Below, one piece after another: positions 19,940 through 35,425 of a stretch of 64,000 nucleotides of DNA (positions are counted from its first letter, which is position 1; every line of letters begins with the position of its first letter). Both the position numbers and the translations under genes were made by a program. The notes under the pieces are model-generated. The model was not told the origin of the DNA. It was given only the letters and a program-made list of their open reading frames with translations, and searched no databases. Where the stretch lies: IMG/VR virus record IMGVR_UViG_3300021060_000011, positions 32,001-96,000 of that record. One strand, written 5' to 3'. The stretch is from a virus. Taxonomy: Duplodnaviria > Caudoviricetes.

Positions 19940-20397
19940 TGTCACCCCTTCAGTATCGCCGCTGGTACGACTTCGCTCGCCGTATGGCGCTGCGCACGAT
20001 GGATGTCACGCCCGCACGGCGTGCCAAGATCGCCAAAGAGATCAGGCACATTCTATGGATACTCGAAAACGACATCTCGGAAATCGAAAGCTGGGACGGT
20101 CCGGGATGCTACGTTGGCGATGAGGTCAGTCGCCTCCTGTACGACGCTGGTCACAACGACGAGCGTCAGTTTAAGAACGGTAGCGTCGAGCAAATAGAAC
20201 ATCGCTTCATCAGTCAGGTCTCTTGCTGCATCCGCGCGGGGCTAGATGTTGCCTTAGAGCCATCAGGGGGCGTGCTCGGTTGGACTGTGGGCGATCTACG
20301 CCAGATGTACCCGCTTGGCCTGCCGGCTTGGGTCGCGGCTTATTTTGTCGAACCCATCACAGCCGAGACGCCCTCCGAGATGGGGGTATGGCTATGA
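19939..20397 (+). CDS. Hypothetical protein
   Basis: Coupled start/stop. Confidence 0.65.
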   Translation: MSPLQYRRWYDFARRMALRTMDVTPARRAKIAKEIRHILWILENDISEIESWDGPGCYVGDEVSRLLYDAGHNDERQFKNGSVEQIEHRFISQVSCCIRAGLDVALEPSGGVLGWTVGDLRQMYPLGLPAWVAAYFVEPITAETPSEMGVWL

Positions 20398-20924
20398 CTT
20401 TCGCCCCCGAAGACCAGAACGGCCTGCGCGAGGCGCTGGCGAGGGCGATCCGTGCGTGGGCGAACCGTTTCGGCGCGTTGCGTCCATGGTCCTCACTCGC
20501 GGACCATCTCATCGCCGGCCCCCTCGCCTCGCTCATCGCCGAACGGGATGCAGCCAACAAAGTCTGCGACATGGCGGCCATGTCCGGCGGCTTCTACTCA
20601 CGCACAGCCGAGAACATGGAGCGCCGCGCCCTCGCCGCCGAAGCCGAGATCACCCGCCTCAAGGAGGGGATGGAGGCGCTGAGGCAGCTCAGCGACGTGG
20701 CGGCGCCGGGAGACTGGTCTGTGTCCGGGGTCCGGCGGCGCGTAGACGAAGCGAGTTGCGTCATCATCGACGCGCCTTCGTGCCCCGTACTGCTCGCGCT
20801 TCCGACAGGCAATGGCGTCCAAGCCCTCGAAGCCTTGCGCGACGCCAAGCTCGCCGTCGCCGCTGTCAATTTTGTCCGCGCCGCCCTCGCAACCCTCTCC
20901 CCGAAGGAGCACCCCCATGGCTGA
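20394..20924 (+). CDS. Hypothetical protein (Ead/Ea22-like segments)
   Basis: ATGA overlap; LSDVAAPGDW motif. Confidence 0.6.
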   Translation: MTFAPEDQNGLREALARAIRAWANRFGALRPWSSLADHLIAGPLASLIAERDAANKVCDMAAMSGGFYSRTAENMERRALAAEAEITRLKEGMEALRQLSDVAAPGDWSVSGVRRRVDEASCVIIDAPSCPVLLALPTGNGVQALEALRDAKLAVAAVNFVRAALATLSPKEHPHG

Positions 20925-21507
20925 GACAACGAGCGCGCCGAGCTTGCGGGAGCTTTCCGAGGCGGCGACGCAGGGCGAGCTAAACTATCCGAATTGGGGC
21001 ACGGATTTTAGGGCCGGTACGGTCTTGGTGGGGATGACGAGCCCAGCCTTCGAGGGGAATGGCAGAGCCAACCGGGCATACATCTGCCGCCTCTGGAACG
21101 ACCACCGCGCCAACCGCCTCATCGATCCCACCACCCTAACCGAGGCTATCGCCTCCGCACGGGCTGAGGGCGTCCGCGAGGGGCTGGAGCGGGCGGCGGG
21201 GATGGAGGGCCGCTTCTGGCTTGAACTACGCGAGCCCCGGCGCGTGCCCGAGCGCAAAGGATCATGGCCGCGAGCCGACATCGCAAAGGTGCTCCGCGAG
21301 TTCATGGCGGCCCGGCCTCAGGCCTACATCACCGTCGTCACCATGGGACCGGACGGGCCGCACTTCGATGATGGCCCCGAGACGCTTCAGATGGCCGACG
21401 CCCGGTCCATGTCTACGGGGCGCCAGCACATCGAGCGCGTCCGTGCCGCTCACGGGTCCCGCGAGGATGTTGCGACCCTCACCCCCGGAGGCCGGACCGA
21501 TGGTTAA
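20917..21507 (+). CDS. Hypothetical protein
   Basis: AAGGAG RBS; LRELSEAATQG motif. Confidence 0.6.
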   Translation: MAETTSAPSLRELSEAATQGELNYPNWGTDFRAGTVLVGMTSPAFEGNGRANRAYICRLWNDHRANRLIDPTTLTEAIASARAEGVREGLERAAGMEGRFWLELREPRRVPERKGSWPRADIAKVLREFMAARPQAYITVVTMGPDGPHFDDGPETLQMADARSMSTGRQHIERVRAAHGSREDVATLTPGGRTDG

Positions 21508-21808
21508 GGGCACGGGACTGACGGGAGCCCTAGAGCGCTTTAATAGGATCGCCAAGGCCGTCGGCGCTCCTCGACCAGGCAGCAACCATCTACCGTTGCT
21601 GGAGGTCGCCTCTGGCGATGGCAGGGTTACCGTCCTAGGCGAAGAATTGGATGCTCTTCATAGGGCCGGATGGCTCACGGCCTGCCCGGACCCTGACGTG
21701 ACGGTCATAGACGGTGGGTCAGAATTCGGGGAGGTCGACTGCGACCACCTTTGGACCATCACTCCCGCCGGCCGCGCCGCCCTCGCTGAACGCGGAGGGG
21801 CGGAGTGA
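21500..21808 (+). CDS. Hypothetical protein
   Basis: GGAGG RBS; WTITPAGRAAL. Confidence 0.6.
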   Translation: MVKGTGLTGALERFNRIAKAVGAPRPGSNHLPLLEVASGDGRVTVLGEELDALHRAGWLTACPDPDVTVIDGGSEFGEVDCDHLWTITPAGRAALAERGGAE

Positions 21809-22344
21809 TGACGAACGACGACGCTTTCATGGTCCTGGCCGGCGTCCGCTACTGCCTCGGCCGCCACAGCTACGCGCCGAGCCTGTGCTGCGATTGGCTC
21901 AAGCTGAAATGGCCGACCTTCGCCGAAGCCGACAAGGCTCAGATCGTCCGCGCGATCCAGGCCCGCGTGGCTGAGGACGGGGCGAACGAAAGCCGCGCCG
22001 GTATCCATAGCTGGGAAACGGACCTCCGAACTTGGCGGGACTTTCTCGAATGGCAGGCCCGGCCGCCATTCCGCACCGGTGACGTCGTTCAGCACGGCCC
22101 GACGGGCGAGAGATGGGTGATCTCCTACGCGGAGCCAGCCACCGGCTACCTGTCCTGGCTCGGTTCGCCCGATGGCGAGGCCAAGATCGCAGACTGCATC
22201 TTGGTCGAGGCCGTCAGCGACGAGGAGCATCACACCATCCTCCGTAACCTCATCAAAGCGGGCGGCTTCCGCGCCGTTCGCGCCCGCCGCCTCTACGGCG
22301 ATCCGCCCTCCCCTCCCGCGCTGCCGACCGGAGCCGACGCATGA
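21805..22344 (+). CDS. Hypothetical protein
   Basis: RYCLGRHSYAPSLCCDW motif. Confidence 0.65.
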   Translation: MMTNDDAFMVLAGVRYCLGRHSYAPSLCCDWLKLKWPTFAEADKAQIVRAIQARVAEDGANESRAGIHSWETDLRTWRDFLEWQARPPFRTGDVVQHGPTGERWVISYAEPATGYLSWLGSPDGEAKIADCILVEAVSDEEHHTILRNLIKAGGFRAVRARRLYGDPPSPPALPTGADA

Positions 22345-22565
22345 AACAGATCACGCTGAACATCGACAGCTCGGCGATGTTCGACCTGGTGAAGCGGGCG
22401 GATGACAACGGCGCCGCGCTCGGTTCTCGCCTCGTGATGATGCTCATGACGAGCGGCGAGATGAGTGTGATCGAGGCAATCGGTCTCGCCGTCTATGGCG
22501 TTACCGTCACGGACGTCCGTGACGTCCCGGCCGGCGTCGCTCCCGTTGAGGGGGGCTCGGCATGA
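22341..22565 (+). CDS. Hypothetical protein
   Basis: ATGA overlaps. Confidence 0.55.
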   Translation: MKQITLNIDSSAMFDLVKRADDNGAALGSRLVMMLMTSGEMSVIEAIGLAVYGVTVTDVRDVPAGVAPVEGGSA

Positions 22566-22834
22566 GGTGGATCGCCTACACCGCATCCATCGCAGTCGGA
22601 GCCGCGATCGCGTTCGGCATTGCCGCGACCAAGCCGGCCGGAAGTGGTGCGCCTGCCCCATACCGAATCTTCCGCGTCTACGACGGGACCATCTCGCAGC
22701 TCGGCGTCTGGCATGACCTTGATACGGGCTGCCAGTACCTCTCCTATCGGAAGGAGACGGGCCTGACGCCCCGCCTCAACATCGACGGCTCGCCCCTCTG
22801 CATCGGCCCTCTGCCCCAGCAGCCTGCGCCTTGA
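22562..22834 (+). CDS. Secreted/membrane hypothetical protein
   Basis: Signal-like N-terminus; DTGCQYL..GLTPRL. Confidence 0.6.
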   Translation: MRWIAYTASIAVGAAIAFGIAATKPAGSGAPAPYRIFRVYDGTISQLGVWHDLDTGCQYLSYRKETGLTPRLNIDGSPLCIGPLPQQPAP

Positions 22835-22881
22835 TGCCCGAGCCACGCCCTCCCCTCCTTTTCACAGCCCGGAGCTGACGC

Positions 22882-23160
22882 ATGACGACCAAGACCACCT
22901 TCATCGAGCGCCTCGGGCTGCTCTTTTCCGATGGGTCGATGGGCATCGGCTCCGAACACACGAAGATCGAAGCGCACCGCGAAGATGCGCTGCTCGCCGA
23001 CAAGCATGAGACCCATCCAGACCATTTCACGAAGGTGGTGCGTGTCCGCGTCGAGGTCGTCGAGGTCGTCGAGATCCCGACCGCCGGAAAGCTCCCGGCC
23101 AAGACCAAGGGCCCGTGCCCGACCTGCGGCCACGTGCATGCCCCGGCGAAGGCGGCTTGA
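22882..23160 (+). CDS. Hypothetical protein (C-terminal CPTCGH)
   Basis: GGAG RBS. Confidence 0.6.
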   Translation: MTTKTTFIERLGLLFSDGSMGIGSEHTKIEAHREDALLADKHETHPDHFTKVVRVRVEVVEVVEIPTAGKLPAKTKGPCPTCGHVHAPAKAA

Positions 23161-23163
23161 GCC

Positions 23164-24264
23164 ATGTCGAAGATCGAATGGACCGAGCGGACCTGGAACC
23201 CCATCGTCGGCTGCTCGGTCGTGAGCCCCGGCTGCACGAATTGCTACGCAATGGCCATGGCCGCGCGGCTCGAGCGCATGGGCCTCGAACGCTACGTCGG
23301 CCTCACGCGGCCGAGCAAGGCCGGGCCGGTGTGGACGGGTGAGACGCGCCTGGTCGAGGACACGCTCACCGAACCCCTGCGTCGGCAGAAGCCGACCATG
23401 TGGTTCGTGAACAGCATGTCGGACCTGTTCCATGAGAGCGTGCCGGACGCGTGGATCGACCGGGTGTTCGCCGTCATGGCGCTGGCGCCGCAGCATACCT
23501 TCCAGGTGCTGACGAAGCGGTCGGCGCGGATGCGGGCGTACATGGATCGGCTCGCATCGCAACGTAAGGGCTTTTCGGGGTTCCCGGCGGAGAAGAACGC
23601 GGCCGCCCGCCTCCACCTGGAGGCTCAGAACCTGAACTGGTTCGTGGATAGCCCGGGCGACGGCGCGTACCTCTTGAGCCGTTGGCCCGGCTGGCCGCTC
23701 CCCAACGTCTGGCTCGGCGTCTCAACCGAGGACCAGCGCCGGGCCGACGAGCGCGTGCCGGACCTGCTGGCGACGCCGGCCGCCGTGCGGTTTGTGTCGG
23801 CCGAGCCGCTGCTGGGGTCGATCGATTTCACCCGTCTGTTTGTCGTGAACGGCAACGGCGGTGCCGGGCGATACAACGCCCTCACCGGGGAGTGGCGGCC
23901 CGGCGACATCGCCGCGATGGCCAACCATGACGGGCCGCGTCTCGACCAAATCATCGTCGGGGGCGAGAGCGGTTCCGGCCCCCGGCCAATGCATCCGGCC
24001 TGGGCGCGCTTGATCCGCGATCAGTGCCAGGGAGCCGAGACCAAGTTCTTCTTCAAGCAGTGGGGCGCGTGGGTGCCGGAGGCGCGAGGCGGGGACTGGA
24101 TGATCCTGTCGGCCGATGGTGATCTGGATATTCCGGATGACCGCTGCCCAGACGAAGAGGCCGGTGAGGTCGCCGTCACACTCATCGGCAAACGCGCCGC
24201 CGGCCGCCTCTTCGACGGCGTCGAGCACAACGGCATGCCGGCCGGCGCGGGAGCTGGGTTATGA
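23164..24264 (+). CDS. Phage Gp37/Gp68 (DUF5131) family protein
   Basis: SKIEWT..TWNPIVGCSVVSPGCTNCYA, VNSMSDLFHE, IVGGESG, FFFKQWG. Confidence 0.92.
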   Translation: MSKIEWTERTWNPIVGCSVVSPGCTNCYAMAMAARLERMGLERYVGLTRPSKAGPVWTGETRLVEDTLTEPLRRQKPTMWFVNSMSDLFHESVPDAWIDRVFAVMALAPQHTFQVLTKRSARMRAYMDRLASQRKGFSGFPAEKNAAARLHLEAQNLNWFVDSPGDGAYLLSRWPGWPLPNVWLGVSTEDQRRADERVPDLLATPAAVRFVSAEPLLGSIDFTRLFVVNGNGGAGRYNALTGEWRPGDIAAMANHDGPRLDQIIVGGESGSGPRPMHPAWARLIRDQCQGAETKFFFKQWGAWVPEARGGDWMILSADGDLDIPDDRCPDEEAGEVAVTLIGKRAAGRLFDGVEHNGMPAGAGAGL

Positions 24265-24857
24265 CCGCGTTCCTCCCCGGCTTCGAGAAGACCGCCCGTC
24301 CGGACTGGATCGGCTCTGCCGAGTTCAGCCCGTGCGGCCACCACCGACGGCGCCTGGACCGGTGGTGGAGCGACGAGCCGCGCGCCCTCGTTTGCGGCTG
24401 CAATCCCAGCGACGCAGGCAGCAAGAAGAACGATCCGACCGTCTGGCGACTGTTCGACCTGCTCACCGGCCGGCCGGGCATCGGTGGGTTCACGGTGGTG
24501 AACTGGGAGGACTACGTCGCCCCGCACCCGTCCGATCTCGCGATCTGGCGCAGGGATCTGATCCGCTACTATCCCGAGCGGTACCAGGCGATCCGGGACG
24601 CGAACCTCTCACGCATTCGCTCCATGGCCGAGGCCGCCCCGGTGCGGATCATCGCCTGGGGCAACCTCGTCCCGCCGGACGACGAGCATACCGCCCTCGT
24701 GCTCGACGCCATGTCGCTCGACGGCACGCACGACCTGCATGCGTTCGAGATCACGCCCCAGGACCGGCCGAAGCACCCCGGTGCGCGCGGCCTGCACCGG
24801 ATCGCCAGCGGCTTGCCTCTGCCCGTCTGGCGCCCAGCCCGAAGGATCGCAGCATGA
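24261..24857 (+). CDS. DUF1643 family protein
   Basis: AEFSPCG, NPSDA..NDPTV, IAWGN, PKHP. Confidence 0.8.
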   Translation: MTAFLPGFEKTARPDWIGSAEFSPCGHHRRRLDRWWSDEPRALVCGCNPSDAGSKKNDPTVWRLFDLLTGRPGIGGFTVVNWEDYVAPHPSDLAIWRRDLIRYYPERYQAIRDANLSRIRSMAEAAPVRIIAWGNLVPPDDEHTALVLDAMSLDGTHDLHAFEITPQDRPKHPGARGLHRIASGLPLPVWRPARRIAA

Positions 24858-25336
24858 ACCGCCGGTTCGCCGCCGAAACGTCGGTCTTGATGGACCGCAG
24901 CATCGCGGAGATCCGCACCACGGTCCGGCGCTACGGCGCCACCGAGTTCGCCCACATGGAGAGCGATGCTCAGGCGGCGATCACCTTCACGATGCGGGGC
25001 CGGCGGGTGCTGTTCCGGCTGGCTATGCCGGATCGGAAGGCCCGCGAGTTCACGCACACCGATGCGATGAACAAGCGCCGCACCCCGGCGGCGGCTGAAA
25101 CCGCATGGGAGCAAGCTTGCCGCTCCCGCTGGCGCGCCCTCGCTCTGGTCATCAAGGCGAAGCTCGAAGCCGTCGAGGTCGGCATCGTCGTGTTCGAGGA
25201 CGAGTTCCTGGCGAACACCGTGCCCCCCGGCGCCAGCGCCACCTACGGCGAGGCCGTGCGCGAGAGCATGGCCCTGGCCCACGAGAAGCAGTCCCTCACC
25301 CCCTTGCTCCCCTACATCTCCGGAGACGGCCGATGA
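24854..25336 (+). CDS. Conserved phage hypothetical protein
   Basis: FAAETSV..RSIAEI; RWRALALVIKAKLEAVE.GI..FEDEFLA. Confidence 0.75.
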   Translation: MNRRFAAETSVLMDRSIAEIRTTVRRYGATEFAHMESDAQAAITFTMRGRRVLFRLAMPDRKAREFTHTDAMNKRRTPAAAETAWEQACRSRWRALALVIKAKLEAVEVGIVVFEDEFLANTVPPGASATYGEAVRESMALAHEKQSLTPLLPYISGDGR

Positions 25337-26073
25337 ACGATCCCCTGCGCCTGCCCTGCCCGACCTGCTCCGGCACCCGGAGCACCACGACCGGCGATCG
25401 GCACGCCGACACGAACATGGACGTCTGCGCGACGTGCCATGACGAGGGCTGGATCCCGGCGCGGACGGGCGAAAGCCCGGAGGCCTCGTTCCAGCACAGC
25501 CCCACCGTCCGCAGGATCATCGGGCCTACCATCCTCCTTGCGAGCGGCAATTACTTCGACCTGCTGGCGCCGGAGCACAGCACGTTCACGATCGAGGATG
25601 TCGCCCACGGGCTCTCCAACACCTGCCGTTTCGCAGGCCAGTGCATCCGCTTCTACAGCGTCGCCCAGCACAGCGTGATCGTCTCGCAGCATGTCCCGCC
25701 CGAGTTCGCTTTCGCCGGACTGATGCACGATGCGGCGGAAGCCTTCATCGGCGACATCACCAAGCCCCTGAAGGACATCCTTCCTGACTATCGAGCCTTG
25801 GAAAAACGCATCGAAGCGGCTGTGCTGCAGCGCTTCGGCTTGCCGGCCGTCATGCCGCCTGAGGTCAAGGAAATCGACGTCGTGATGCTGGCAACCGAGC
25901 AGGCGCAGCTCATGCGGAATCGTGATGATTGGAACTACACCCGAGGCCGCACACCCATTCCGATCGAGATCCCCGCTATGGGGCCCGAGGCTGCCAAGGC
26001 CGCGTTCCTGGCGCGGTACGCTGAAGTGCGGGCCCAGGGCACGGGCATCTCCCTCGCCGGAAAGGCTGCGTGA
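25333..26073 (+). CDS. HD-domain 5'-deoxynucleotidase-like protein with N-terminal Zn ribbon
   Basis: IEDVAHGLSNTCRFAG, FYSVAQHS, LMHDAAEAFIGDI; CPTC/CATC. Confidence 0.85.
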   Translation: MNDPLRLPCPTCSGTRSTTTGDRHADTNMDVCATCHDEGWIPARTGESPEASFQHSPTVRRIIGPTILLASGNYFDLLAPEHSTFTIEDVAHGLSNTCRFAGQCIRFYSVAQHSVIVSQHVPPEFAFAGLMHDAAEAFIGDITKPLKDILPDYRALEKRIEAAVLQRFGLPAVMPPEVKEIDVVMLATEQAQLMRNRDDWNYTRGRTPIPIEIPAMGPEAAKAAFLARYAEVRAQGTGISLAGKAA

Positions 26074-26492
26074 TGGTCGAGGCACCCTTCAAGCTGAACC
26101 TCGTCAAGAACGAGCCCGTGATCCGGGATGACCGGTGGGAGATCTCGATCACGAACCTCGGGGACTTCGGTTTCGACGGTAAGCTCTGTGTCCGACACCG
26201 TCAGCTCGGCACATGGGACGAATGGCCGGACAGCGAGGCGGATGCGCCATCAGCGATCACCGCGCGCGCGTACGACCTCGAGCACGAGGTGACGTTCCCC
26301 TCCCTTGGCAAAGCCATGAGGGCGGCGATGTCCTTCCTCCGAAGGTTCGGCTCGGGCGAGGTCGAGTGGCTGGAATGGGACGTCGATGGGCAGCGCCACG
26401 TCGTCGTCCAGCACACGCAGCGTGGCACAGGCGAGCTGTCGGGCTGGAAGTATCAGCCTGACCCGGTGGCCGCCCTCGCAGCGCCAGCTTGA
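26070..26492 (+). CDS. Hypothetical protein
   Basis: Overlap-coupled ORF. Confidence 0.55.
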   Translation: MMVEAPFKLNLVKNEPVIRDDRWEISITNLGDFGFDGKLCVRHRQLGTWDEWPDSEADAPSAITARAYDLEHEVTFPSLGKAMRAAMSFLRRFGSGEVEWLEWDVDGQRHVVVQHTQRGTGELSGWKYQPDPVAALAAPA

Positions 26493-26547
26493 CAGGACGG
26501 ACGGGTCCGTCCCCGTTTGCCTTCCCTGCATCACTCTGGAGCGTGTC

Positions 26548-26776
26548 CGTGGCTGACGACAATGAGCGATTCGATTGGAGCAGCGATAATATCGTGGTCC
26601 CGGAGCAGAAGCCGATAGCTGTCTACTGGAACCCGCTGGGGGCCTTAGTCATCCGGCAGCAGGCAGGAATGTATGAGACCGAAGATCCCTTCGTCGTCAT
26701 CCAGCCGGGCCACATCCCGGCTCTCATGAGCCGCATCGAGCAGCTGCTCAGCGAGGGGCCTTCCACTGAAGAGTGA
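26548..26776 (+). CDS. Hypothetical protein
   Basis: GTG start after GGAG; TTGACA at 26489 may be its promoter. Confidence 0.5.
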
Positions 26777-27017
26777 GCCCCTGCCGACGCGCATTTCGTG
26801 CTGCGTCCCGTTCTGCCAGCGCACCCGGCGGAACGACATCGGCTTCGAGGAATGGATCTGCGGCGATCACTGGCGCGCCGTGCCAGCCCCAATGCGACGG
26901 GTGTACAGCCGAGCCCTTCGCCGGTATCGGCGCGGGGTCGGCTGCTACGGCGCACGCGAAAGCCGGTTGTGGCGGCGCCTCCGCCGGGCGGCCGTTGAGG
27001 CGGCCGCCGGCCTGTAG
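26766..27017 (+). CDS. Cys/His zinc-finger-like phage protein missing from the ORF track (possible CTG start)
   Basis: Frame reads ...ISCCVPFCQRT...EWICGDHWRAVP...AAAGL*; GAGGGG 7 nt before CTG. Confidence 0.5.
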   Translation: MKSEPLPTRISCCVPFCQRTRRNDIGFEEWICGDHWRAVPAPMRRVYSRALRRYRRGVGCYGARESRLWRRLRRAAVEAAAGL

Positions 27018-27060
27018 GGCCCGCCAAACGCCGATCCGCGTCGGTAGTTCCTCCACACCG

Positions 27061-27118
27061 GAGTCCGCCTGGTCGCTTGCAACCGGCTCGCGCAGGACTC
27101 GACTCTCGTTACCGAATC
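27061..27118. promoter_or_regulatory. repA promoter region with four GANTC (CcrM) sites
   Basis: GAGTC 27061, GACTC 27096, GACTC 27101, GAATC 27114. Confidence 0.6.
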
Positions 27119-27187
27119 ATTGCACGTGGTGAAGCTTCGCGTTTATAGCGTCAATCGACGTTAAAAACGGAAGCGAGGGTTCGGAAC

Positions 27188-28408
27188 GTGGACGCGCAAA
27201 CCATGCTGCAACGACCGATCCACGTGGGCGGGGCGACAAGCGGCGAAGTCATCGACGAGTACGCCTCGATCCTGCGCGAGAAGCTCCGGACGCTGTCCGA
27301 GGCCCTGTTCAGTCCCGATTCCGTGAAGACGCTCCGCCGGTTCACCTCGGGGGAGGCGGCCAAGATCATCGGAGTGACCGACAACCGCCTGCGCCAGCTC
27401 TCGCTAGCCGGCGATGGTCCCCTCCCCGAGGTCTCGCCCACCGGCCGCCGGTCGTACACCCTCGCCGACATCCACGGACTGCGCGCGCACATGACCGCGA
27501 TCTCTCGGACAGGGCGCGCCTACAAGCCCTGGCGCGCCGAGGGGGAGCACCTCCAGGTCGTCTCCGTGGTGAACTTCAAGGGCGGCTCCGGCAAGACGAC
27601 CACGGCCGCCCACCTAGCGCAATCCCTGGTGCTGCGCGGCTACCGGGTTCTGGCCATCGACCTCGACCCCCAGGCCAGTCTCTCGGTCCTGCACGGCGTG
27701 CAGCCGGAGATCGAGGTGGGGCCCAACGAGACGCTCTATGGCGCCCTGCGGTACGGGCCCGAGCGGCGACCGATCGCCGAGATCATCCGGCCCACCTACT
27801 TCACCGGCCTCGACTTGATCCCGGCCAACCTCGAGCTGATGGAGTTCGAGCACGAGACGCCGAAGGCGCTCAACCGCCGGGACGACCGAGACCAGCTCTT
27901 CTTCGAGCGCCTGAGCCACGCGCTCCAGACCGTCGAGGACCGCTACGACGTCGTCGTGATCGACTGCCCGCCGCAGCTCGGCTTTCTGACCCTGGCTGCC
28001 CTCTACGCCGCCACGTCGCTGCTCATCACCGTCCACCCGCAGATGCTCGACATCGCCTCGATGTCCCAGTTCCTGACGATGACGGGCGACCTCCTTTCGG
28101 TGGTGCGCGAGGCCGGCGGCGAGATCCAGTTCGATGCAGTTCGCTTCCTCGTCACCCGGTACGAGCCGCAGGACACGCCGCAGACCCGCGTCGTCACCCT
28201 CCTCCGCCACCTGTTCGGCGAAGCGGTGCTGAACGCCACGATGCTGAAGTCCTCGGCGGTGTCGGATGCCGGCTTGTCGAAGCAGACGCTCTACGAGATC
28301 GGACGGGAGACCATGACCCGCTCGACCTACGATCGCGCGGTCGAATCGCTGGAGGCAGTCAACGGCGAGATCGAGGGCATGATCCGGCACGCGTGGGGCC
28401 GGGCATGA
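27188..28408 (+). CDS. repA: Plasmid partitioning ATPase RepA
   Basis: N-terminal HTH (FTSGEAAKIIG), NFKGGSGKTTT, IDLDPQASL, IDCPPQLG. Confidence 0.95.
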   Translation: MDAQTMLQRPIHVGGATSGEVIDEYASILREKLRTLSEALFSPDSVKTLRRFTSGEAAKIIGVTDNRLRQLSLAGDGPLPEVSPTGRRSYTLADIHGLRAHMTAISRTGRAYKPWRAEGEHLQVVSVVNFKGGSGKTTTAAHLAQSLVLRGYRVLAIDLDPQASLSVLHGVQPEIEVGPNETLYGALRYGPERRPIAEIIRPTYFTGLDLIPANLELMEFEHETPKALNRRDDRDQLFFERLSHALQTVEDRYDVVVIDCPPQLGFLTLAALYAATSLLITVHPQMLDIASMSQFLTMTGDLLSVVREAGGEIQFDAVRFLVTRYEPQDTPQTRVVTLLRHLFGEAVLNATMLKSSAVSDAGLSKQTLYEIGRETMTRSTYDRAVESLEAVNGEIEGMIRHAWGRA

Positions 28409-29439
28409 GCCGCAAGACCTCCCTCGACGCGCTGTTTGGCGGTAAGCCGCCGGAGCGATTGTCAGCTGACAATCCGCCCGCGCCGCCCCCGCCGGAGTTG
28501 TCAGCTGACAATCCGCCGGTCCCTCCCCCGGCCCTCGGCCCCGTGCGTGCGCGCAGCGGGGCCGTTCGTGCGATGGGCGCGACACTCGACGACCTGAAGG
28601 CCCGGGCTCGCTCAGCCGAGAACGTCGAGACCGGCTCCGTCGTCGCCGAGTTAGATACCGCGCAAATCGACGGCTCGTTCGTGGCGGACCGCGTGTCCGA
28701 CGCGACGGACCCTGCCATGGCCGGCCTCGTCGAGAGCATGCGCAGCGGGCAGCAAGTCCCGATCCTGGTGCGGCCGCATCCGGAGTCGCCGGGCCGGTAC
28801 CAGATCGCCTACGGGCATCGCCGCGTCCGGGCGGCGGCGGAGCTGGGCACCAAGGTCCGCGCGGTCATCCGGCCGCTTACGGACGACGAGCTGGTCGTGG
28901 CCCAGGGCAAGGAGAACCTGGACCGACGCGACCTCAGTTACATCGAGCGGGCCTTCTTCGCCCTGCGGCTGGAGATGCGGTCGTTCCCCCGCGAGGTGAT
29001 CTGCGCGGCCATGGCGACCGATCTGCCCAACGTGTCCCGGTTCATCACCGTCGCGCGGACCATCCCCGAGGACATCGTCGCGGCCATCGGGCCGGCGCCG
29101 AAGGCGGGGCGGCCGCGCTGGATGGATCTGGCCGAGCGCGTCCAGTCCAAGGGGCGGGCGGCGATCGACCGGCTGATGGGCGACGAGGCGTTTCAGGCCA
29201 TGTCCACGGACGAGCGCTTCGCTGCCGTCCTGGCGGCGGTCAGCGCCAAGCCGACGGGCAAGCGCAAGGCGAAGCCTAAGGACTGGCTCGACGGGGAGGG
29301 GCGGGCCGTCGCGCGCATCGAGCGCGCCGACAACCGGTTCGTCCTGACGATCAATGAGGAATTAGAACCAGAGCTCGGGGACCACCTCATGAGCCGGTTC
29401 GCAGAGATCCTTGCCGAGCATCGCGCTCGCAAGGCGTAA
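28405..29439 (+). CDS. repB: Plasmid partitioning protein RepB (ParB family)
   Basis: GQQVPILVRP, YQIAYGHRRVRAA, ENLDRRDLSYIERA, IGPAPKAGRPRW. Confidence 0.95.
   Translation: MSRKTSLDALFGGKPPERLSADNPPAPPPPELSADNPPVPPPALGPVRARSGAVRAMGATLDDLKARARSAENVETGSVVAELDTAQIDGSFVADRVSDATDPAMAGLVESMRSGQQVPILVRPHPESPGRYQIAYGHRRVRAAAELGTKVRAVIRPLTDDELVVAQGKENLDRRDLSYIERAFFALRLEMRSFPREVICAAMATDLPNVSRFITVARTIPEDIVAAIGPAPKAGRPRWMDLAERVQSKGRAAIDRLMGDEAFQAMSTDERFAAVLAAVSAKPTGKRKAKPKDWLDGEGRAVARIERADNRFVLTINEELEPELGDHLMSRFAEILAEHRARKA
28458..28512. promoter_or_regulatory. Two parS-like palindromes inside repB
   Basis: attgtcagctgacaat (28458-28473) and gttgtcagctgacaat (28497-28512). Confidence 0.8.
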
Positions 29440-29476
29440 CCCCGCCCGCAACCCCGAATAGAGGACGACGCACCGC

Positions 29477-29531
29477 AAAAGAAAAAGGCCCCCAAGACGT
29501 TTCCGTCCCGGAAGCCTTCTCCGTCTTCAGC
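29477..29531 (-). ncRNA. repABC counter-transcribed RNA (ctRNA)
   Basis: repB-repC intergenic; minus-strand TTGACG-N17-GATTCT promoter (29538-29566), hairpin and U-tract. Confidence 0.8.
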
Positions 29532-29623
29532 AAACAGAGAATCCCACTTCCGACAGCTCCCGTCAAGAGTCAGGACGCCGTTTTGGCGAACGCCTTCGGC
29601 TTGCCCGGTGCCCGACACCGACG

Positions 29624-30823
29624 ATGAACCTGCACATCACGACGCCCTTCGGGCGGCGTTCGCTGACGGCTGCGCAGATCGATGCGCAGGCGAACGCGGC
29701 CGCATGCCCGCGCGATGCCACGGTCGACAAATGGGCCGTCTTCCGACACATCGCCCAGGCGAAAGACTGGCTCGGCGTATCCGACCGCTCGCTGTCCGTG
29801 TTGAACGCGCTCCTCAGCTTCCATCCCGAGACGGCCCTGATGCCGGGAGAGGGCGCTGGCCTTGTCGTCTTCCCCTCGAACACGCAGCTCGCTTTGCGCG
29901 CGCATGGAATGGCAGGGCCGACCCTGCGTCGGCACCTTGCCGCGCTGGTCGAGGCCGGGCTGATCATCCGGCGGGATAGCCCGAACGGCAAACGCTACGC
30001 CCGGAAAGGGCAGGGCGGGGTGGTCGCGCAGGCCTTCGGCTTCGACCTCATCCCGATCGTGGCGCGCGCAGCCGAGTTCGAGGCCCAGGCCGAGCGGATC
30101 CAGGCTGAGCGACGCACGCTGCACCTCGCCCGCGAGGCTGTGACGATCCTGCGCCGTGACGCGGCGAAACTCATCCTCGCCGGGATCGAGTCCGGGATCG
30201 CGGCAGATTGGACCGGCTATCGCGCCCGCTACGAGGCGATCCTGGGCGGGCTGACGCGCGCGCCTCGCCTCCTGGAGCTGGAGAGCATCCGCACCGCCCT
30301 GACGGCCCTGGTGGCCGATGTGAGCAAGTCCCTGACAGTTCGGCACGAAACACGAGAATCGAACGCCAGTGCTGATCGTAGTGAGCAGCACAGTCAGAGT
30401 TCAAAACCAGAGGCCTTAGATTCTGGAATGGCTATCGGGGATAGAGAAGAAGCCGGGGGCAGGGCACGTCCGGAAGGGGGGAGCGGGACGGCGACGACCT
30501 ACCCACTCGGGATGGTGCTGAACGCCTGCCCCGACATCGTCGACTACGCCCGCAACGGCATCCGTTCGTGGCGGGACCTTGCCGACGTCGCGGACCTTGT
30601 CCGGGGCATGATGGGCATCAGTCCGAGCGCCTGGCGCGACGCCCAGGACGTCATGGGGCCTGATGCAGCAGCGGCGACGATGGCGGCCATCCTGCAGCGG
30701 GCCGAACACATCAAGAGCCCTGGGGGCTACCTGCGCACGCTGGTGGAGCGGAAGAGGGCAGGGCGGTACAGTCTGGGTCCGGTGCTTCTGGCCCTTACTC
30801 GAGCGCGTGCAGCGGCAGCCTGA
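29624..30823 (+). CDS. repC: Replication initiator RepC (oriV expected internally)
   Basis: TTPFGRR, VFPSNTQL, RRDSPNGKRYARK, IKSPGGYLR. Confidence 0.95.
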   Translation: MNLHITTPFGRRSLTAAQIDAQANAAACPRDATVDKWAVFRHIAQAKDWLGVSDRSLSVLNALLSFHPETALMPGEGAGLVVFPSNTQLALRAHGMAGPTLRRHLAALVEAGLIIRRDSPNGKRYARKGQGGVVAQAFGFDLIPIVARAAEFEAQAERIQAERRTLHLAREAVTILRRDAAKLILAGIESGIAADWTGYRARYEAILGGLTRAPRLLELESIRTALTALVADVSKSLTVRHETRESNASADRSEQHSQSSKPEALDSGMAIGDREEAGGRARPEGGSGTATTYPLGMVLNACPDIVDYARNGIRSWRDLADVADLVRGMMGISPSAWRDAQDVMGPDAAAATMAAILQRAEHIKSPGGYLRTLVERKRAGRYSLGPVLLALTRARAAAA

Positions 30824-30942
30824 GGGCCCGGGCCCAGCGCGCCGCAGATGTGGTGTGGAATGGGGGCTGAGGCTTCGCTGCGATGCAAATCTGCTTAGCC
30901 GCAGGGCGGAGGAGAGACCCGCCAAACTGAGGAGGGAAGGCG

Positions 30943-31419
30943 ATGCAGACCTTTGCGGAAATTTGGGAGCGGGACGGTCGGTGGCTGTTAGGCCCCGGCT
31001 TGCTCGGCGACGTGATCGAGCACCTTCGCGGGCGAGCCCCGATTGTCGTGGCGAGCGAGCAGGACCCCTCAACCGCGAACATGACGCTCCCCCTGCCCAA
31101 CGTGCGGGACGAAGCGAGCGGGGACCCGCGGAGCATCTATTTCGCGGTCCCGCCCGAGCTGAGAGACCTCTTTGCGGAGCGGTGCAGCCTCATCGTTCGC
31201 GACTGGTACGGACCCGAGGTGGATCGCGCGCTCGGGCAGTACGTCGGCAGGCATCAGATGAGACAACACACGCTCGACAGGATCAACGGCGAACTGCGGA
31301 ACATCGAGCGAGCCCGCGAGGCACGGGGCGAGGACGCCGAGCTTTGGCAGCTTGCCGCCACCCGTTTCGGTTTCAGCCGTTGGGCGCTGCCGAAGCCGGC
31401 CGGCTTGGCCGCCGAGTAG
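30943..31419 (+). CDS. Hypothetical protein
   Basis: GGAGGGAAGG RBS; 158 aa. Confidence 0.6.
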   Translation: MQTFAEIWERDGRWLLGPGLLGDVIEHLRGRAPIVVASEQDPSTANMTLPLPNVRDEASGDPRSIYFAVPPELRDLFAERCSLIVRDWYGPEVDRALGQYVGRHQMRQHTLDRINGELRNIERAREARGEDAELWQLAATRFGFSRWALPKPAGLAAE

Positions 31420-31445
31420 GGCGGAGGGGAAAGGAGCCGAACCAA

Positions 31446-31715
31446 ATGAGCAGATACACGTTCGCCGGCGCCACGCTCAGCATCGCAGGGCAGGCGGTCA
31501 CAGTCCGGGGCTTCCTCGTGGAGCCGCTTCCCGATCTGGCAACGGCATCGCTTGCCGAGCTGCGCGAGGCGGAATGGTCGGGCCGTGAGCCGTGCAAGGC
31601 TACGGATGGGGCATGGCACGTCTGCCAATGCTGCGGCGCGGCCAAGATCGACGGCGAGGGCCACAAGCCCGGTTGTGCGATGGCAGCGGCCATCCTGGCG
31701 CGGATACCGGAATAG
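31446..31715 (+). CDS. Hypothetical Cys/His protein
   Basis: AAGGAG RBS; CQCCG..GHKPGC. Confidence 0.55.
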   Translation: MSRYTFAGATLSIAGQAVTVRGFLVEPLPDLATASLAELREAEWSGREPCKATDGAWHVCQCCGAAKIDGEGHKPGCAMAAAILARIPE

Positions 31716-31777
31716 GGCGGAGGCGACCTCCGCCACGCTGAGCTTGGCGCTGCCGGCCCCTGCCCTATCTGGCTGGC

Positions 31778-32044
31778 ATGGCCAACGCACCTCAGACCAC
31801 CGGCGAGCTGTTCAAGGCGAAGGCCGTGACCGACGTAGATATCGCGGCCGCGGTGGACGCCTTCATCGCCGATCCGAGCACCTCGGCGTTCCTGTTCGGC
31901 GAGGGCTATCGGATCGACCTCGCCGAGGCTGTGCGCGCGCACGAGTGGGCCTCGGTGACGACCGCCAACAAGGATGCGACGGACCACCTGAAGCGCGCCG
32001 CCGTGCGCACCGCGATCCTCCTCGCCCGGCCGGAGAAGGTGTGA
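31778..32044 (+). CDS. Hypothetical protein
   Basis: 88-aa ORF with typical codon usage. Confidence 0.6.
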   Translation: MANAPQTTGELFKAKAVTDVDIAAAVDAFIADPSTSAFLFGEGYRIDLAEAVRAHEWASVTTANKDATDHLKRAAVRTAILLARPEKV

Positions 32045-32202
32045 TCCCGAATCGGGAGGCGCGCGCGTCCGCTCCCTTGAGCTGACGATAACCCGCCGGC
32101 CGCATCCTGCCGTCGAGCCAAGTTGCATACCGGCTCGAGCGTGAGATGGGCGTCCCACCCCGCCGGCCCGTGATCAGATCGGGCGGCGGGGTCGTTAGTG
32201 CC

Positions 32203-32658
32203 TCACCTGACCAGCCCGGTACGGGCAATGTGCCAGCGGATCGAGAACCGGACCACACCCCAAATTTCAGCGTCCGCACCCTCGGCAACGCTGAAGGCTG
32301 GGAGGTCGGGGTTCTCGAATGCCAACCAGGTGACGTTGCCCTCGATGCGCAGGCGCTTGATCGACATCTCACCGTCGATCGCAGCCACCACCACGCTGCC
32401 GTTGCCAGGCTTCATGCTGCGATCCACCACCGCGAGATCACGGTCGAAGATGCCGGCCGCCCGCATGGAGTCGCCCGAGATGTTCCAGGCGAAGGTCGCG
32501 GGCGGGTTCGGAGCGAGCCAGCGCGGCAGCTCCAGCGCACCCTCGAGGAAGTCGTCGGCCGGTGATGGGAAGCCGGCGCAGAGCGCCTGTCCCATGATCG
32601 GAATCCGGACGAGGTTGTCCCCATCCCTCACAAGCTCCGCGACCTGAAAAAGGCCCAC
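32203..32658 (-). CDS. umuD: UmuD-like S24 protein (orphan; no umuC adjacent)
   Basis: CAGFPSPADDF cleavage motif, GDSM, VVDRS, SIKRL, IWGVV. Confidence 0.88.
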   Translation of the reverse strand: MGLFQVAELVRDGDNLVRIPIMGQALCAGFPSPADDFLEGALELPRWLAPNPPATFAWNISGDSMRAAGIFDRDLAVVDRSMKPGNGSVVVAAIDGEMSIKRLRIEGNVTWLAFENPDLPAFSVAEGADAEIWGVVRFSIRWHIARTGLVR

Positions 32659-32678
32659 CGCTGCATCCTTCCGTGATA

Positions 32679-32693
32679 GAACAGAAAGGGAAC
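32679..32693 (-). promoter_or_regulatory. LexA box upstream of umuD
   Basis: GAAC-agaaagg-GAAC (GTTC-N7-GTTC on the minus strand). Confidence 0.8.
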
Positions 32694-32787
32694 AAGCGCG
32701 CGAACGGTTCCACGGTCAAGCTCGTGGATGCCGCTTGTGGATAGCGGGGATGGCGCCTTCCGGCGCCTTGGGGTGGAGTGTGATCCG

Positions 32788-33042
32788 ATGGCGATGAAAA
32801 CGACGTTCCTGGTCCAGACCTTCACCATCAAGCGCAAGCGCCTGATCCCGGGCGACCGCGAGGTGGCGGTGACCGAGCACGGGGCTCTGAAGAAGGCGGA
32901 GGCCATGGCCGGCCGGCTGCCCGGTACGGCCGCGATCAAGGTCGTGGCCGACGACGAAACGGGCGAGCTGGAGGCGGCCACGATCCTCGGCCAGTTCGGG
33001 GAAATCCCGGAGGACTTCGCCGAGAGCCTGCAGGGGGCCTGA
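32788..33042 (+). CDS. Hypothetical protein
   Basis: GGAG RBS; divergent from umuD. Confidence 0.65.
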   Translation: MAMKTTFLVQTFTIKRKRLIPGDREVAVTEHGALKKAEAMAGRLPGTAAIKVVADDETGELEAATILGQFGEIPEDFAESLQGA

Positions 33043-33047
33043 AACGC

Positions 33048-33080
33048 AAAAAGCGCCCCAGAGCCGAAGCTCCGGGGCGC
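33048..33080 (-). terminator. Intrinsic terminator ending the virion/lysis operon
   Basis: gcgcccc..gagc-cgaa-gctc..ggggcgc hairpin with minus-strand U-tract. Confidence 0.75.
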
Positions 33081-33088
33081 GGATGGTC

Positions 33089-33469
33089 TCAGGTCTTCAC
33101 GTGGACGCCGAAGATGCTGAGGAAGGTGCCGCCGAACGCAGCGACCACCCCGACCAGGGCGCCCCAGAGCTTCTTCTCGACCGTGGATACGCGCCCCTCG
33201 AGCGCCGCGATCCGCTCGTGGATCGCCTTGTTGTCCTTCTCGATCTCGCTGCGCGGAACGAACGCGCTGATCGCCTGCATGACGTTGCCGTGCCGGTGAT
33301 CGGCCGCCTTCTGGGCGTTCTCGTCCGCCTTCACGAGGGCAACCTGGCGCTCCTCAATGCGGGCGAGCTGCGCGACGGTGTCGCCGCGCATCTTCTCGAT
33401 CGACAGGAGGATGCCGAGGGCATCGGGGACCGAGCCCTGCGGCGCGACCTGAATCGTGGTTTCAGCCAT
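33089..33469 (-). CDS. Coiled-coil membrane protein (XhlA/holin-like)
   Basis: Coiled coil plus C-terminal TM segment; end of lysis cassette. Confidence 0.6.
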   Translation of the reverse strand: MAETTIQVAPQGSVPDALGILLSIEKMRGDTVAQLARIEERQVALVKADENAQKAADHRHGNVMQAISAFVPRSEIEKDNKAIHERIAALEGRVSTVEKKLWGALVGVVAAFGGTFLSIFGVHVKT

Positions 33470-33553
33470 TACTTTCGCCCCCAGCGGGCCATGGTGGCGC
33501 GCCGGGGAGGGGGCGCGCGAGTTCAGCCCCTCCCCCGTTGGCGGGGGAGGGTA

Positions 33554-33868
33554 TCAGCGGGCGAGGTCGCGCCGGACGGCGTCGATCCAGGCCACGGCGC
33601 GCGCGCCGCAAGCCGTCTTCGCCCGGTCCAGCACCTTTGCCGCCCCGATGATCCGTACGATGTCGGCGCGGGTCAGGGCGCGGTCAGGGATCTCCGGGAA
33701 GGCCTGGCGCAAGCACGGCCCGACGTCGGCCGGCGCCTCCGGCAGGGTGACGCGGATGCCGGGTGCGCGCGGATCGATCGCCGGCACGCCGTCAGAGGTC
33801 ACGCAGGCGGCGAGACAGGTCCCGAGGAAGGCACACGCGATTGCGGTGCGGATCGGCGCGAAGCGCAT
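33554..33868 (-). CDS. Outer-membrane lipoprotein spanin (Rz1-like)
   Basis: Lipobox LAAC; overlaps the 3' end of the i-spanin in another frame. Confidence 0.7.
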   Translation of the reverse strand: MRFAPIRTAIACAFLGTCLAACVTSDGVPAIDPRAPGIRVTLPEAPADVGPCLRQAFPEIPDRALTRADIVRIIGAAKVLDRAKTACGARAVAWIDAVRRDLAR

Positions 33869-34232
33869 CGTTGAGGTCCTTCAGCTTCTGGGCATCGGCT
33901 TGGGCCGCAGCCACGTCGCGCACGGCCTGCACGGCGATCCGGTCGGTGATCTGCCGCGCGACCGCCGTGCGCGTCTGCTCGGCCGCTAAAGCGCGGGCCG
34001 CGTCGCGCGCGAAGGCATCGTGAGCGCCCTTGGCGGTGCCGGCCTGATAGATCGCGGCGCCGGCGATGAGGATGACGCCCACGGCGACGAGGGGGCGCTT
34101 GAGGAAGCCCGGCAGCCAGGAGAGGCCAACGAGGGCCAGGACGAGCGCCGCGACACCGCCGAGGCCAGCCACCGCCGCCAGCGGGGAGAACGCCGTCCAG
34201 GCGTTCTGGAGGAGGGCGAGGGCGGCGATCAC
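33792..34232 (-). CDS. Inner-membrane spanin (Rz-like)
   Basis: N-terminal TMs, Ala-rich helix, C-terminal Cys. Confidence 0.7.
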   Translation of the reverse strand: MIAALALLQNAWTAFSPLAAVAGLGGVAALVLALVGLSWLPGFLKRPLVAVGVILIAGAAIYQAGTAKGAHDAFARDAARALAAEQTRTAVARQITDRIAVQAVRDVAAAQADAQKLKDLNDALRADPHRNRVCLPRDLSRRLRDL

Positions 34233-34735
34233 CGCTTCAGGCCTTCCAGGCACAATGCCGTCTCACGGGCGCGACGGTTGGTGAGACCCGTCACGGGCCG
34301 GAGCACGCCGTTGACCTTGGCCTTGTTCCAGGCGCCCATGGCCCGGCAGGCGTCGGCGAAGCTGCCCGCGTTGTAGAGCCGGGCGGTGGTGGACTTGCAG
34401 AAGCCGGCCGAGCCGATGTTGTAGGAGAGGCCCACGAACGCCACGAGGGTCTTGTCGGACATGGGCTGCTTGATGCAGGCTTCGACCTTGCCCGAGAACT
34501 CGTCGAGGCGGCGCAGGAGCTTGGCGTCGCACTCAGCCTTGGTGAAGGTCTGCCCCATCTTTGCGCCCTGGGTCTCCCCGTAACAATCCGTCGGGATTCC
34601 CGCGATGTCGCGGTAGGTCTTCAGGCGAAGGCCTTCCTCGGCGCCGGTGTGGTTGACGGCCATGGTGCCGGCAGCCGTCGCGAGGAGCACGACGACGCCG
34701 AACAGGCTGGTCTTCTTGGTGACGAGGCGGCTCAC
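34229..34735 (-). CDS. Endolysin, GH24 lysozyme with probable SAR anchor
   Basis: EG..YRD...PT.CYG catalytic E-D-T; SYNIG; GLTNRR; hydrophobic N-terminus. Confidence 0.9.
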   Translation of the reverse strand: MSRLVTKKTSLFGVVVLLATAAGTMAVNHTGAEEGLRLKTYRDIAGIPTDCYGETQGAKMGQTFTKAECDAKLLRRLDEFSGKVEACIKQPMSDKTLVAFVGLSYNIGSAGFCKSTTARLYNAGSFADACRAMGAWNKAKVNGVLRPVTGLTNRRARETALCLEGLKR

Positions 34736-35043
34736 GACGCGGCCTCCGGCGTCACAGCCTGCTGGGCGAACAGCCGGGCCACGGCCGCCGCAACGGTCAC
34801 CACGGCGGACAAGGCCGCGAAGGTGCCGGCGGCGATGGGCGGGTTCGAGGTGAACACCGACAGCGCCACCTCGATGCCGGACAGGACGGCGGCGATCAGC
34901 GCGAGGCGGATGCTCCAAGCGTGGCGGAGGAGGGCGCGCCAGTTGTCGTGCAGGCGCAGGCGCGCGGCGGTGACGGCGGCAAGGCGCGCGCCGACGGCCG
35001 CTCGCAGGCGCGCGAAGGCGCCCGCGTCGGGAGACGTGGTCAT
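34732..35043 (-). CDS. Putative holin
   Basis: Two TMs, NWR..LRHAWSIRL...ARLFAQ; upstream of the lysozyme. Confidence 0.75.
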   Translation of the reverse strand: MTTSPDAGAFARLRAAVGARLAAVTAARLRLHDNWRALLRHAWSIRLALIAAVLSGIEVALSVFTSNPPIAAGTFAALSAVVTVAAAVARLFAQQAVTPEAAS

Positions 35044-35065
35044 GGTGGATCTCCAGAGTGGGAGG

Positions 35066-35425
35066 TCAGCCGAGGACGGTGACGCTCACGGTGGCGAGGC
35101 CGCGCTGCGTGATGCCGAGGGCGCGGGCAGCGCCGAGCGACAGGTCGATGAGGCGGTGAAGGCGCGGGTGGGGCCCGCGGTCGTTCACGGTGACGTCGAC
35201 GTGCCGGCCGGTGGCGAGGTCGGTGACGCGGACCCGGGTACCGAGTGGCAGGGTCCAGTGCGCGGCGCCGAGCTGGGTGGGCACGAACGGCTTGCCGTCG
35301 GCGCGGCGGGTGCCGCTCTCGTAGCCGTAGAACGAGGCGCGGCCGATCCAGTCGGCGCAGGCGGGCGTGCTCGCGAGCATGGCGCAGGCGAGGGCGGCCC
35401 GGAGCGCGAGGCGCTTCAGGAACAT
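35066..35425 (-). CDS. RlpA-like (DPBB) lytic transglycosylase domain protein
   Basis: Signal peptide; GRASFYG, AAHWTLPLGT.VRVT, VNDRGP, IDLS.GAA..LG. Confidence 0.85.
   Translation of the reverse strand: MFLKRLALRAALACAMLASTPACADWIGRASFYGYESGTRRADGKPFVPTQLGAAHWTLPLGTRVRVTDLATGRHVDVTVNDRGPHPRLHRLIDLSLGAARALGITQRGLATVSVTVLG

Follow-up and report, generated by a model that had tools for sequence, protein, structure and literature searches.

A repABC plasmid cassette in the integrase slot of a temperate phage: a candidate phage-plasmid of Methylobacterium

The 64,000-nucleotide stretch of viral DNA considered here (the window) is bases 32001-96000 of a 125,103-bp IMG/VR virus record, IMGVR_UViG_3300021060_000011. 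It contains an intact repABC cassette, a module of alphaproteobacterial plasmids, which lies among the genes of a tailed phage at the place where relatives of that phage carry an integrase. The phage unit, called Y, consists of a 798-bp repeat (R), window 20445-64000, and record 96001-124305, for a total of 72,659 bp. On balance, the evidence favors Y being a temperate phage of Methylobacterium, its head and terminase of the lambda type and its contractile tail of the Mu type, that persists in lysogeny as a low-copy repABC plasmid. This reading draws on the integrity and position of the cassette, its linkage to phage genes in three assemblies, the purifying selection acting on it, and the presence of an integrase in the corresponding slot of related phages.

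An intact repABC cassette

The cassette occupies window 27040-30823, with its genes in the order repA-repB-repC, in one operon on the + strand. It comprises the following features (window positions):

27040-27187, + strand: repABC promoter/operator leader; homology to the cassette of Methylobacterium gossipiicola starts here, and the last ~110 bp are almost invariant in the alignment
27188-28408, + strand: repA; TIGR03453, 614.8 bits (cut-off 348); Pfam AAA_31/CbiA
28393-29439, + strand: repB, encoding a ParB-type partition protein; TIGR03454, 328.4 bits (cut-off 201.5)
28458-28512: two parS-like 16-bp palindromes, 39 bp apart, directly 3' of the repA stop
29475-29520, - strand: ctRNA (incAlpha); Rfam RF00489 ctRNA_p42d, matched at full length (1-46), in the repB-repC gap
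29624-30823, + strand: repC, encoding the replication initiator; NF040974, 480.9 bits (cut-off 150); Pfam RP-C and RP-C_C
30324-30449: AT-rich stretch within repC, a candidate oriV; 48-50% AT versus ~30%

All three proteins exceed their NCBIfam equivalog cut-offs. By family membership, RepA is predicted to be a ParA-type partition ATPase and autorepressor. The real start of repB is probably 3' of the parS-like palindromes; a shorter repB is annotated by PGAP in plasmid NZ_CP099613.1. The ctRNA, which scores 54.5 bits against an Rfam gathering score of 50 (E 1e-10), is predicted to down-regulate repC. Thus, the parts that the original prediction had judged intact from the sequence (repA, repB, repC, parS, and ctRNA) are indeed all present.

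The cis-acting sites are similarly well preserved. The putative parS palindromes are ATTGTCAGCTGACAAT at 28458 and GTTGTCAGCTGACAAT at 28497, and ATTGTCAGCTGACAAT is one of just three perfect 16-bp palindromes across the 125-kb record. Both fit the repABC consensus GTTNNCNGCNGNNAAC with one mismatch, two relatives (L002 and L003) have both at the corresponding position, and both are identical to those in the plasmid-type cassette of M. gossipiicola. The 100 bp with the highest AT content between 26.5 and 33.2 kb (30350-30449) falls within repC. The AT-rich stretch corresponds to repC nucleotides ~700-826, and its counterpart in plasmid p42d was mutated at 658-822 (PMC3155836). In p42d, the AT-rich origin region inside repC is experimentally essential (PMC3155836).

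Plasmid and phage relatives of the cassette

The nearest cellular copy of the cassette, that of M. gossipiicola (88% nucleotide identity; RepA 98% amino acid identity), is on a 131-kb plasmid-like contig without phage neighbors. Homology to this contig is limited to ~27040-30807. The nearest plasmid in PLSDB, NZ_CP099613.1, is an ordinary ars/tad plasmid of 55.8 kb whose cassette is 80% identical at the nucleotide level, and RepC shares 86-88% of its amino acids with bona fide plasmid RepC proteins.

Two other assemblies carry the cassette or its end next to phage genes. The first, G001 (IMG/VR viral contig IMGVR_UViG_3300045938_000166, 29.3 kb), has a repABC that is 97% identical in nucleotides. 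It contains the right early region of Y (including a lambda-O-like replication initiator), three other genes, repABC, umuCD, TerS, and a Xer-like recombinase, in the circular order of Y. It is without the 26.5-kb lysis/virion block, and its TerL is cut at residue 96, continuing in a 453-aa open frame (about 20465-20589). The ends of G001 face each other across the late leader, a non-coding, repeat-rich region that is also found in Y, and the contig has no host DNA. G001 is either a phage-plasmid reduced by decay to a plain plasmid or the product of misassembly of the metagenome. In the second assembly, L045 (metagenome contig Ga0182232_1001455, 4.9 kb), repC is followed by umuCD and then by the late-operon end. 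Together with the present record, repC is therefore linked to phage genes in three assemblies, and the original prediction's proposal to look for repC homologues with phage synteny has yielded close ones in two further assemblies. A scan of IMG/VR with a RepC-alignment profile re-found L002 only.

The two phage-borne copies of repABC (this element and G001) can be compared directly. Their dN/dS values are 0.012 for repA, 0.107 for repB, and 0.121 for repC, based on 28-41 synonymous differences per gene. These low values indicate that the genes have been maintained as functional while carried by a phage.

Given the plasmid relatives, repABC might belong to a larger plasmid or chromid into which ordinary prophages have integrated, as in Sulfitobacter plasmids. 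Prophages on RepABC plasmids have been described (PMC9044938), and both the nearest cellular cassette, on its 131-kb contig, and the closest PLSDB relative, an ordinary plasmid, fit this idea. However, the plasmid homology ends at the edges of the cassette, the same tight phage flanks are present in all three assemblies, and no att duplication or integrase brackets a prophage beside the cassette. Furthermore, no plasmid backbone or cargo genes were recognized among the proteins sampled across the 125 kb; the cassette is the sole plasmid-type module, with early genes on one side and the late-operon end on the other. This alternative is most improbable.

It is also very unlikely that the cassette is cargo with no role in maintaining the phage, acquired by recent passive capture or serving, for example, to displace resident repABC plasmids through incompatibility exerted by ctRNA, parS, or RepC. 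All three are incompatibility determinants in repABC plasmids (PMC3155836), and identity of the parS palindromes with those of M. gossipiicola would suit such a function. Yet a single determinant would suffice for incompatibility, whereas here all three genes and all of the cis sites are intact under purifying selection, and the unit has no conventional integrase in the slot where its relatives carry one.

Integrase or repABC in one slot

A myovirus nearly identical to Y is present as a chromosomal prophage in Methylobacterium sp. Leaf99. The two are colinear over the stretch that begins at window 31762 and ends at record 117095; nucleotide identity is 89% over 11.9 kb of the head/tail region, and TerL is 96% identical in amino acids. 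Its left operon terminates in a gene for a 349-aa tyrosine integrase, and no RepC was found anywhere in the Leaf99 genome. The prophage spans ~70 kb, close to the 72.66 kb of Y, which is relevant for a phage with cos-type packaging.

A viral contig, L036, provides a further comparison. It has a single left operon that includes homologues of the C5 methylase and 638-aa protein of Y, the DUF5131 and DUF1643 genes, and the R gene (83% amino acid identity). This operon ends in a weak tyrosine integrase, which is followed by a homologue of window 31778-32044. The gene order of L036 supports continuity from the left part of Y through R into segment S, the early genes that run into repA, and L036 appears, by its weak integrase match, to be a second case after Leaf99 of an integrase in the slot. 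In the present record, the slot lacks an integrase and att is not duplicated. These comparisons uphold the original prediction that repABC occupies the place of int/att.

Two small open reading frames (ORFs) mark the borders. On the repA side, a small Cys-rich ORF on the same strand, common to G001 and not found in the plasmid relative, ends at 27017. The spacing of ~170 bp between repA and the last gene of what the original prediction called the PL operon, in the same orientation, is thus as described. On the other side, an 88-aa ORF adjoins the integrase or the prophage end in relatives, and it is its homologue that follows the integrase in L036. Phage genes lie at most 170 bp upstream and ~1 kb downstream of the cassette.

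The Leaf99 prophage is itself part of a prophage-dense island (C1 1,893,000-1,980,000). To its left are a truncated portal gene and two serine recombinases; to its right are KatG and the T4-type terminase of another element.

Unit Y as a temperate phage

Y holds full gene sets for the virion, packaging, lysis, and the control of lysogeny. Around the cassette, and in the part of Y beyond the window, the main features are the following (window positions unless marked as record):

20445-27017, + strand: segment S, phage early (left-operon) genes running into repA (Pfam, ORFs)
23164-24264, + strand: DUF5131 gene in segment S (Pfam)
24261-24857, + strand: DUF1643 gene in segment S (Pfam)
30943-31419, + strand: 158-aa ORF, variable among relatives; no Pfam or NCBIfam match; absent from G001 and L045
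31762-32048, + strand: 88-aa conserved ORF marking the phage side of the slot; 86% nucleotide identity to Leaf99 1904030-1904316
32203-32658, - strand: umuD-like S24 peptidase gene (Pfam PF00717)
33053-33080, - strand: strong intrinsic terminator ending the late (lysis) operon; 12-bp stem with 10 GC pairs, T-run
33089-35425, - strand: lysis cassette (Pfam); lysozyme at 34229-34918, DPBB lytic transglycosylase-like protein at 35066-35425
36203-60802, - strand: complete myovirus virion and packaging module (PHROGs)
record 98126-99100, - strand: gene for an Xer-like tyrosine recombinase of 324 aa, flanked by the packaging region and the late leader

The virion module runs in the order tail fiber, baseplate, tape measure, sheath, major head protein, protease, portal, TerL, TerS. 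The lysis terminator (33080-33053) is 2.2-2.3 kb beyond repC, in agreement with the ~2.3 kb given in the original prediction. Y also carries a CI-like S24 repressor, a rightward early operon (RusA, a methylase, an SNF2 helicase, and a lambda-O-like replication initiator), and a leftward operon (a CtrA-like regulator, the C5 methylase, and the 638-aa protein). The Xer-like recombinase, 92% identical in nucleotides to the G001 copy and not present at this locus in the integrase-bearing Leaf99 relative, is the sole tyrosine recombinase in the record and is distant from the slot; no serine recombinase was found in the record.

These components suggest a life cycle. The ~3.8-kb repABC cassette, probably derived from the Methylobacterium plasmid pool, sits where two divergent operons reconverge, the location at which relatives have an integrase and, presumably, attP. 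In lysogeny, the CI-like repressor would silence the lytic genes, and the phage would be a circular extrachromosomal element whose RepC fires the origin within repC once per cycle. The ctRNA, together with autorepression by RepA/RepB, would keep the copy number low, and RepA/RepB would segregate the copies by way of the two parS palindromes. Dimers may be resolved by the Xer-like recombinase, given its presence in both repABC-bearing elements and its absence at the locus in Leaf99. After induction, lytic replication would depend on the lambda-O-like initiator encoded by the phage itself, and the cos-type terminase would package the whole unit, repABC included. The original prediction had instead assigned lytic replication to a DUF1376 initiator. 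That gene (window 5945-6904, - strand) is in a different phage unit, and the repABC unit has the lambda-O-like initiator of its own.

Three further observations concern individual genes of Y. At record 108486-110140 (- strand), there are two adjoining reading frames of lambda-O-like initiators. In the upstream frame, all that is left of the O-like protein is its N-terminus (residues 1-98), to which an HNH endonuclease domain is joined; this looks like a homing-endonuclease insertion or a replication-gene duplication. The umuC gene, which is 3' of umuD in Leaf99, G001, and L045, has been cleanly deleted here (window 32048-32203), leaving an orphan umuD-like gene. Finally, the ARAGORN call of a 'tRNA-???' at window 56193-56289 (+ strand), whose anticodon would have four bases (ggtc) and which is antisense to the head protease gene, is likely to be spurious, a product of the GC-rich coding sequence.

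Structure of the record

Self-BLAST reveals that the record is not a single phage genome. The repeat that bounds Y is:

19647-20444, + strand: repeat R, 798 bp, matching the final 798 bp of the record (record 124306-125103) with 100% identity

The record reads X-R-Y-R, a lariat in which R bounds the 72,659-bp unit (R+Y). R starts within the C-terminus of homologous left-operon genes of X (440 aa) and Y (638 aa), which are otherwise 30-45% identical. It interrupts the 'PL operon' at a point ~6.7 kb before repA. All of the sequence between the two copies of R, repABC and the whole virion module included, is unique, so the linkage of repABC to the phage does not depend on how R is resolved. Two other arrangements were considered. 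A concatemer is rejected, as the 798 bp alone repeats and not the whole unit. A single 125-kb circle or a figure-8 is unsupported: the two ends of the record do not overlap, and closure would make the ORF at the R end run into the tRNA.

Unit X, the first 51.6 kb of the record, is a second, unrelated phage unit with its own terminase, virion genes, and early region; it is here that the DUF1376 gene resides. A tRNA-Ser(CGA) lies 25 bp from the record start (26-115) and is followed by phage-type genes (HNH endonuclease, metallophosphatase; 215-1448) and no host genes; this tRNA is either a host attachment site or phage cargo. Since neither a second copy of the tRNA-Ser 3' end nor an integrase for X is present anywhere in the record, the far end of X must be outside it. 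Relatives of the unit-X terminase and of both R-adjacent genes are too distant to reveal what follows R in X. The CheckV estimate of '100% complete' probably reflects two genomes in one record, and neither the size nor the 'completeness' of such a viral record, a composite of two phage units at a repeat, should be taken at face value.

The lariat fits either a free Y circle that the assembler misjoined to X or a real cointegrate produced by recombination across R. If the record is correct as written, Y is chromosomal and lies within prophage X as a Campbell-type cointegrate formed by homologous recombination across R; repABC would then be integrated and repressed or redundant, with a free circle arising perhaps only by R x R recombination. 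The X-R-Y-R order of the contig is what this predicts, and X begins beside tRNA-Ser with no integrase in the record, which would place its integrase and second att past R. Against this, a contig that ends exactly within a repeat is typical of unresolved assembly graphs, and an active second chromosomal origin is usually disfavored. In addition, the strong purifying selection on repABC and the host-free G001 argue that the cassette is in use. We consider the integrated state rather unlikely; it concerns the state of the element in this sample and does not deny that Y is a phage-plasmid.

Several observations weigh against maintenance of Y as a plasmid. The record is listed as linear in IMG/VR, and, read literally, it has the repABC unit in physical continuity with unit X. 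The second copy of R is cut by the contig end, and the repeat may exceed 798 bp. Composition (tetranucleotide and GC) favors the grouping of segment S with Y only weakly. The tyrosine recombinase of Y could be an integrase with an unrecognized attP. The att sites of the Leaf99 prophage were not located, with no direct repeat above 12-17 bp and no tRNA detected, and for this reason the notion of a 'same slot' depends on gene order. The virion deletion of G001, a metagenome contig, could be an assembly artifact. Lastly, PLSDB contains no circular relative, and searches with TerL and sheath gave no alphaproteobacterial phage-plasmid of this type; the alphaproteobacterial PLSDB matches were just prophages on large plasmids and the 21-kb pMRAD08.

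The last of these, pMRAD08 (NC_010507.1, from M. radiotolerans JCM 2831), is a small circular phage-derived plasmid of the same genus without repABC. It encodes a GpA-type terminase (55% amino acid identity to that of Y), an S49 head protease, helicases, and a ParA-like ATPase.

Leaf99, Y, and G001 may document how a phage-plasmid arose when a phage captured a plasmid replicon, or a change in the opposite direction: the first is an integrative myovirus with an integrase in the slot, the second has repABC there, and the third is a derivative that has lost the virion genes and retains repABC, the recombinase, and the O-like initiator. The 798-bp segment may also permit integrase-free shuttling between a free plasmid and a form integrated in a resident prophage. 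We offer this scenario tentatively, as a possibility somewhat short of even; the direction of the swap is not fixable with these three genomes.

Comparison with known systems

Phage-plasmids are an established class, well studied in enterobacteria and poorly documented in Alphaproteobacteria. No phage-plasmid of Methylobacterium was found in the literature. The original prediction contrasted repABC with the other replicons used by plasmid prophages, and this overstates the novelty, as RepABC and RepC phage-plasmids have been published (PMC10090143, PMC5537653). Its reading is partly supported: the slot occupancy and the phage-linked repC stand, while the DUF1376 role and the implied novelty do not.

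The cassette itself closely resembles those of alphaproteobacterial repABC plasmids such as Rhizobium etli p42d and pTi (Cevallos 2008; PMC3155836). It shares with them the operon order, three protein families at the equivalog level, the ctRNA_p42d in the repB-repC gap, the 16-bp parS palindromes, and an AT-rich core at the same position in repC. The difference is one of context: the known replicons are typically those of a large conjugative or cargo plasmid or a chromid, whereas here the cassette is inside a tailed-phage genome.

Among phage-plasmids, those of Roseobacter are described as having 'ParABS and RepABC' systems (Shan et al. 2023, PMC10090143). The 40-50-kb elements of the Tritonibacter mobilis A3R06 type are likewise alphaproteobacterial, and those are circular (PMC10090143). 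They differ from the present element (72.7 kb, with a lambda-like head and Mu-like contractile tail) in host family, size, and virion type, and the A3R06 element itself has parAB and a P4-family primase, unlike Y. No sequence relative of the Roseobacter phage-plasmids was found in this analysis. A RepC-like system is also described for pLM21S1 of Sinorhizobium sp. LM21 and for the group of Rhizobium phage RHEph10 (PMC5537653). These phages or plasmid-prophages belong to Rhizobiales and have an initiator of the RepC family, and the RepC of the RHEph10 group is 29-31% identical in amino acids to that described here. They have a distant RepC only, whereas Y has a full repA-repB-ctRNA-repC set that is near to bona fide plasmid cassettes.

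The plasmid prophages P1 and N15 resemble Y in pairing a plasmid replicon for lysogeny with a separate lytic initiator, and in having a partition system. A site-specific recombinase could serve in dimer resolution, as Cre does in P1. Their replicon families show no relationship to repABC, and Y has no protelomerase.

A 2024 review states that phage-plasmids have not been seen to form through the acquisition of genes (PMC11652158); the trio of Leaf99, Y, and G001 could bear on this point. The combination of a sharp-edged plasmid module, its plasmid relatives, and integrase-bearing phage relatives would allow a direct test of switching between integrative and plasmid lysogeny. Moreover, a replicon from the host genus may make the phage incompatible with resident repABC plasmids, and the system could show whether this is so.

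In Cluster A mycobacteriophages, close relatives carry either an integrase or parABS at one locus (see Wetzel 2020, cited in PMC11652158). Here too, a cassette for integration and one for plasmid maintenance are exchanged in a single genomic slot. In Cluster A, the exchanged module is a partition system only, used with an origin of the phage; in Y, it is a whole replicon, with initiator, origin, and copy control. The element belongs to a known kind, the RepABC/RepC phage-plasmids, and displays a clear swap of integrase and repABC.

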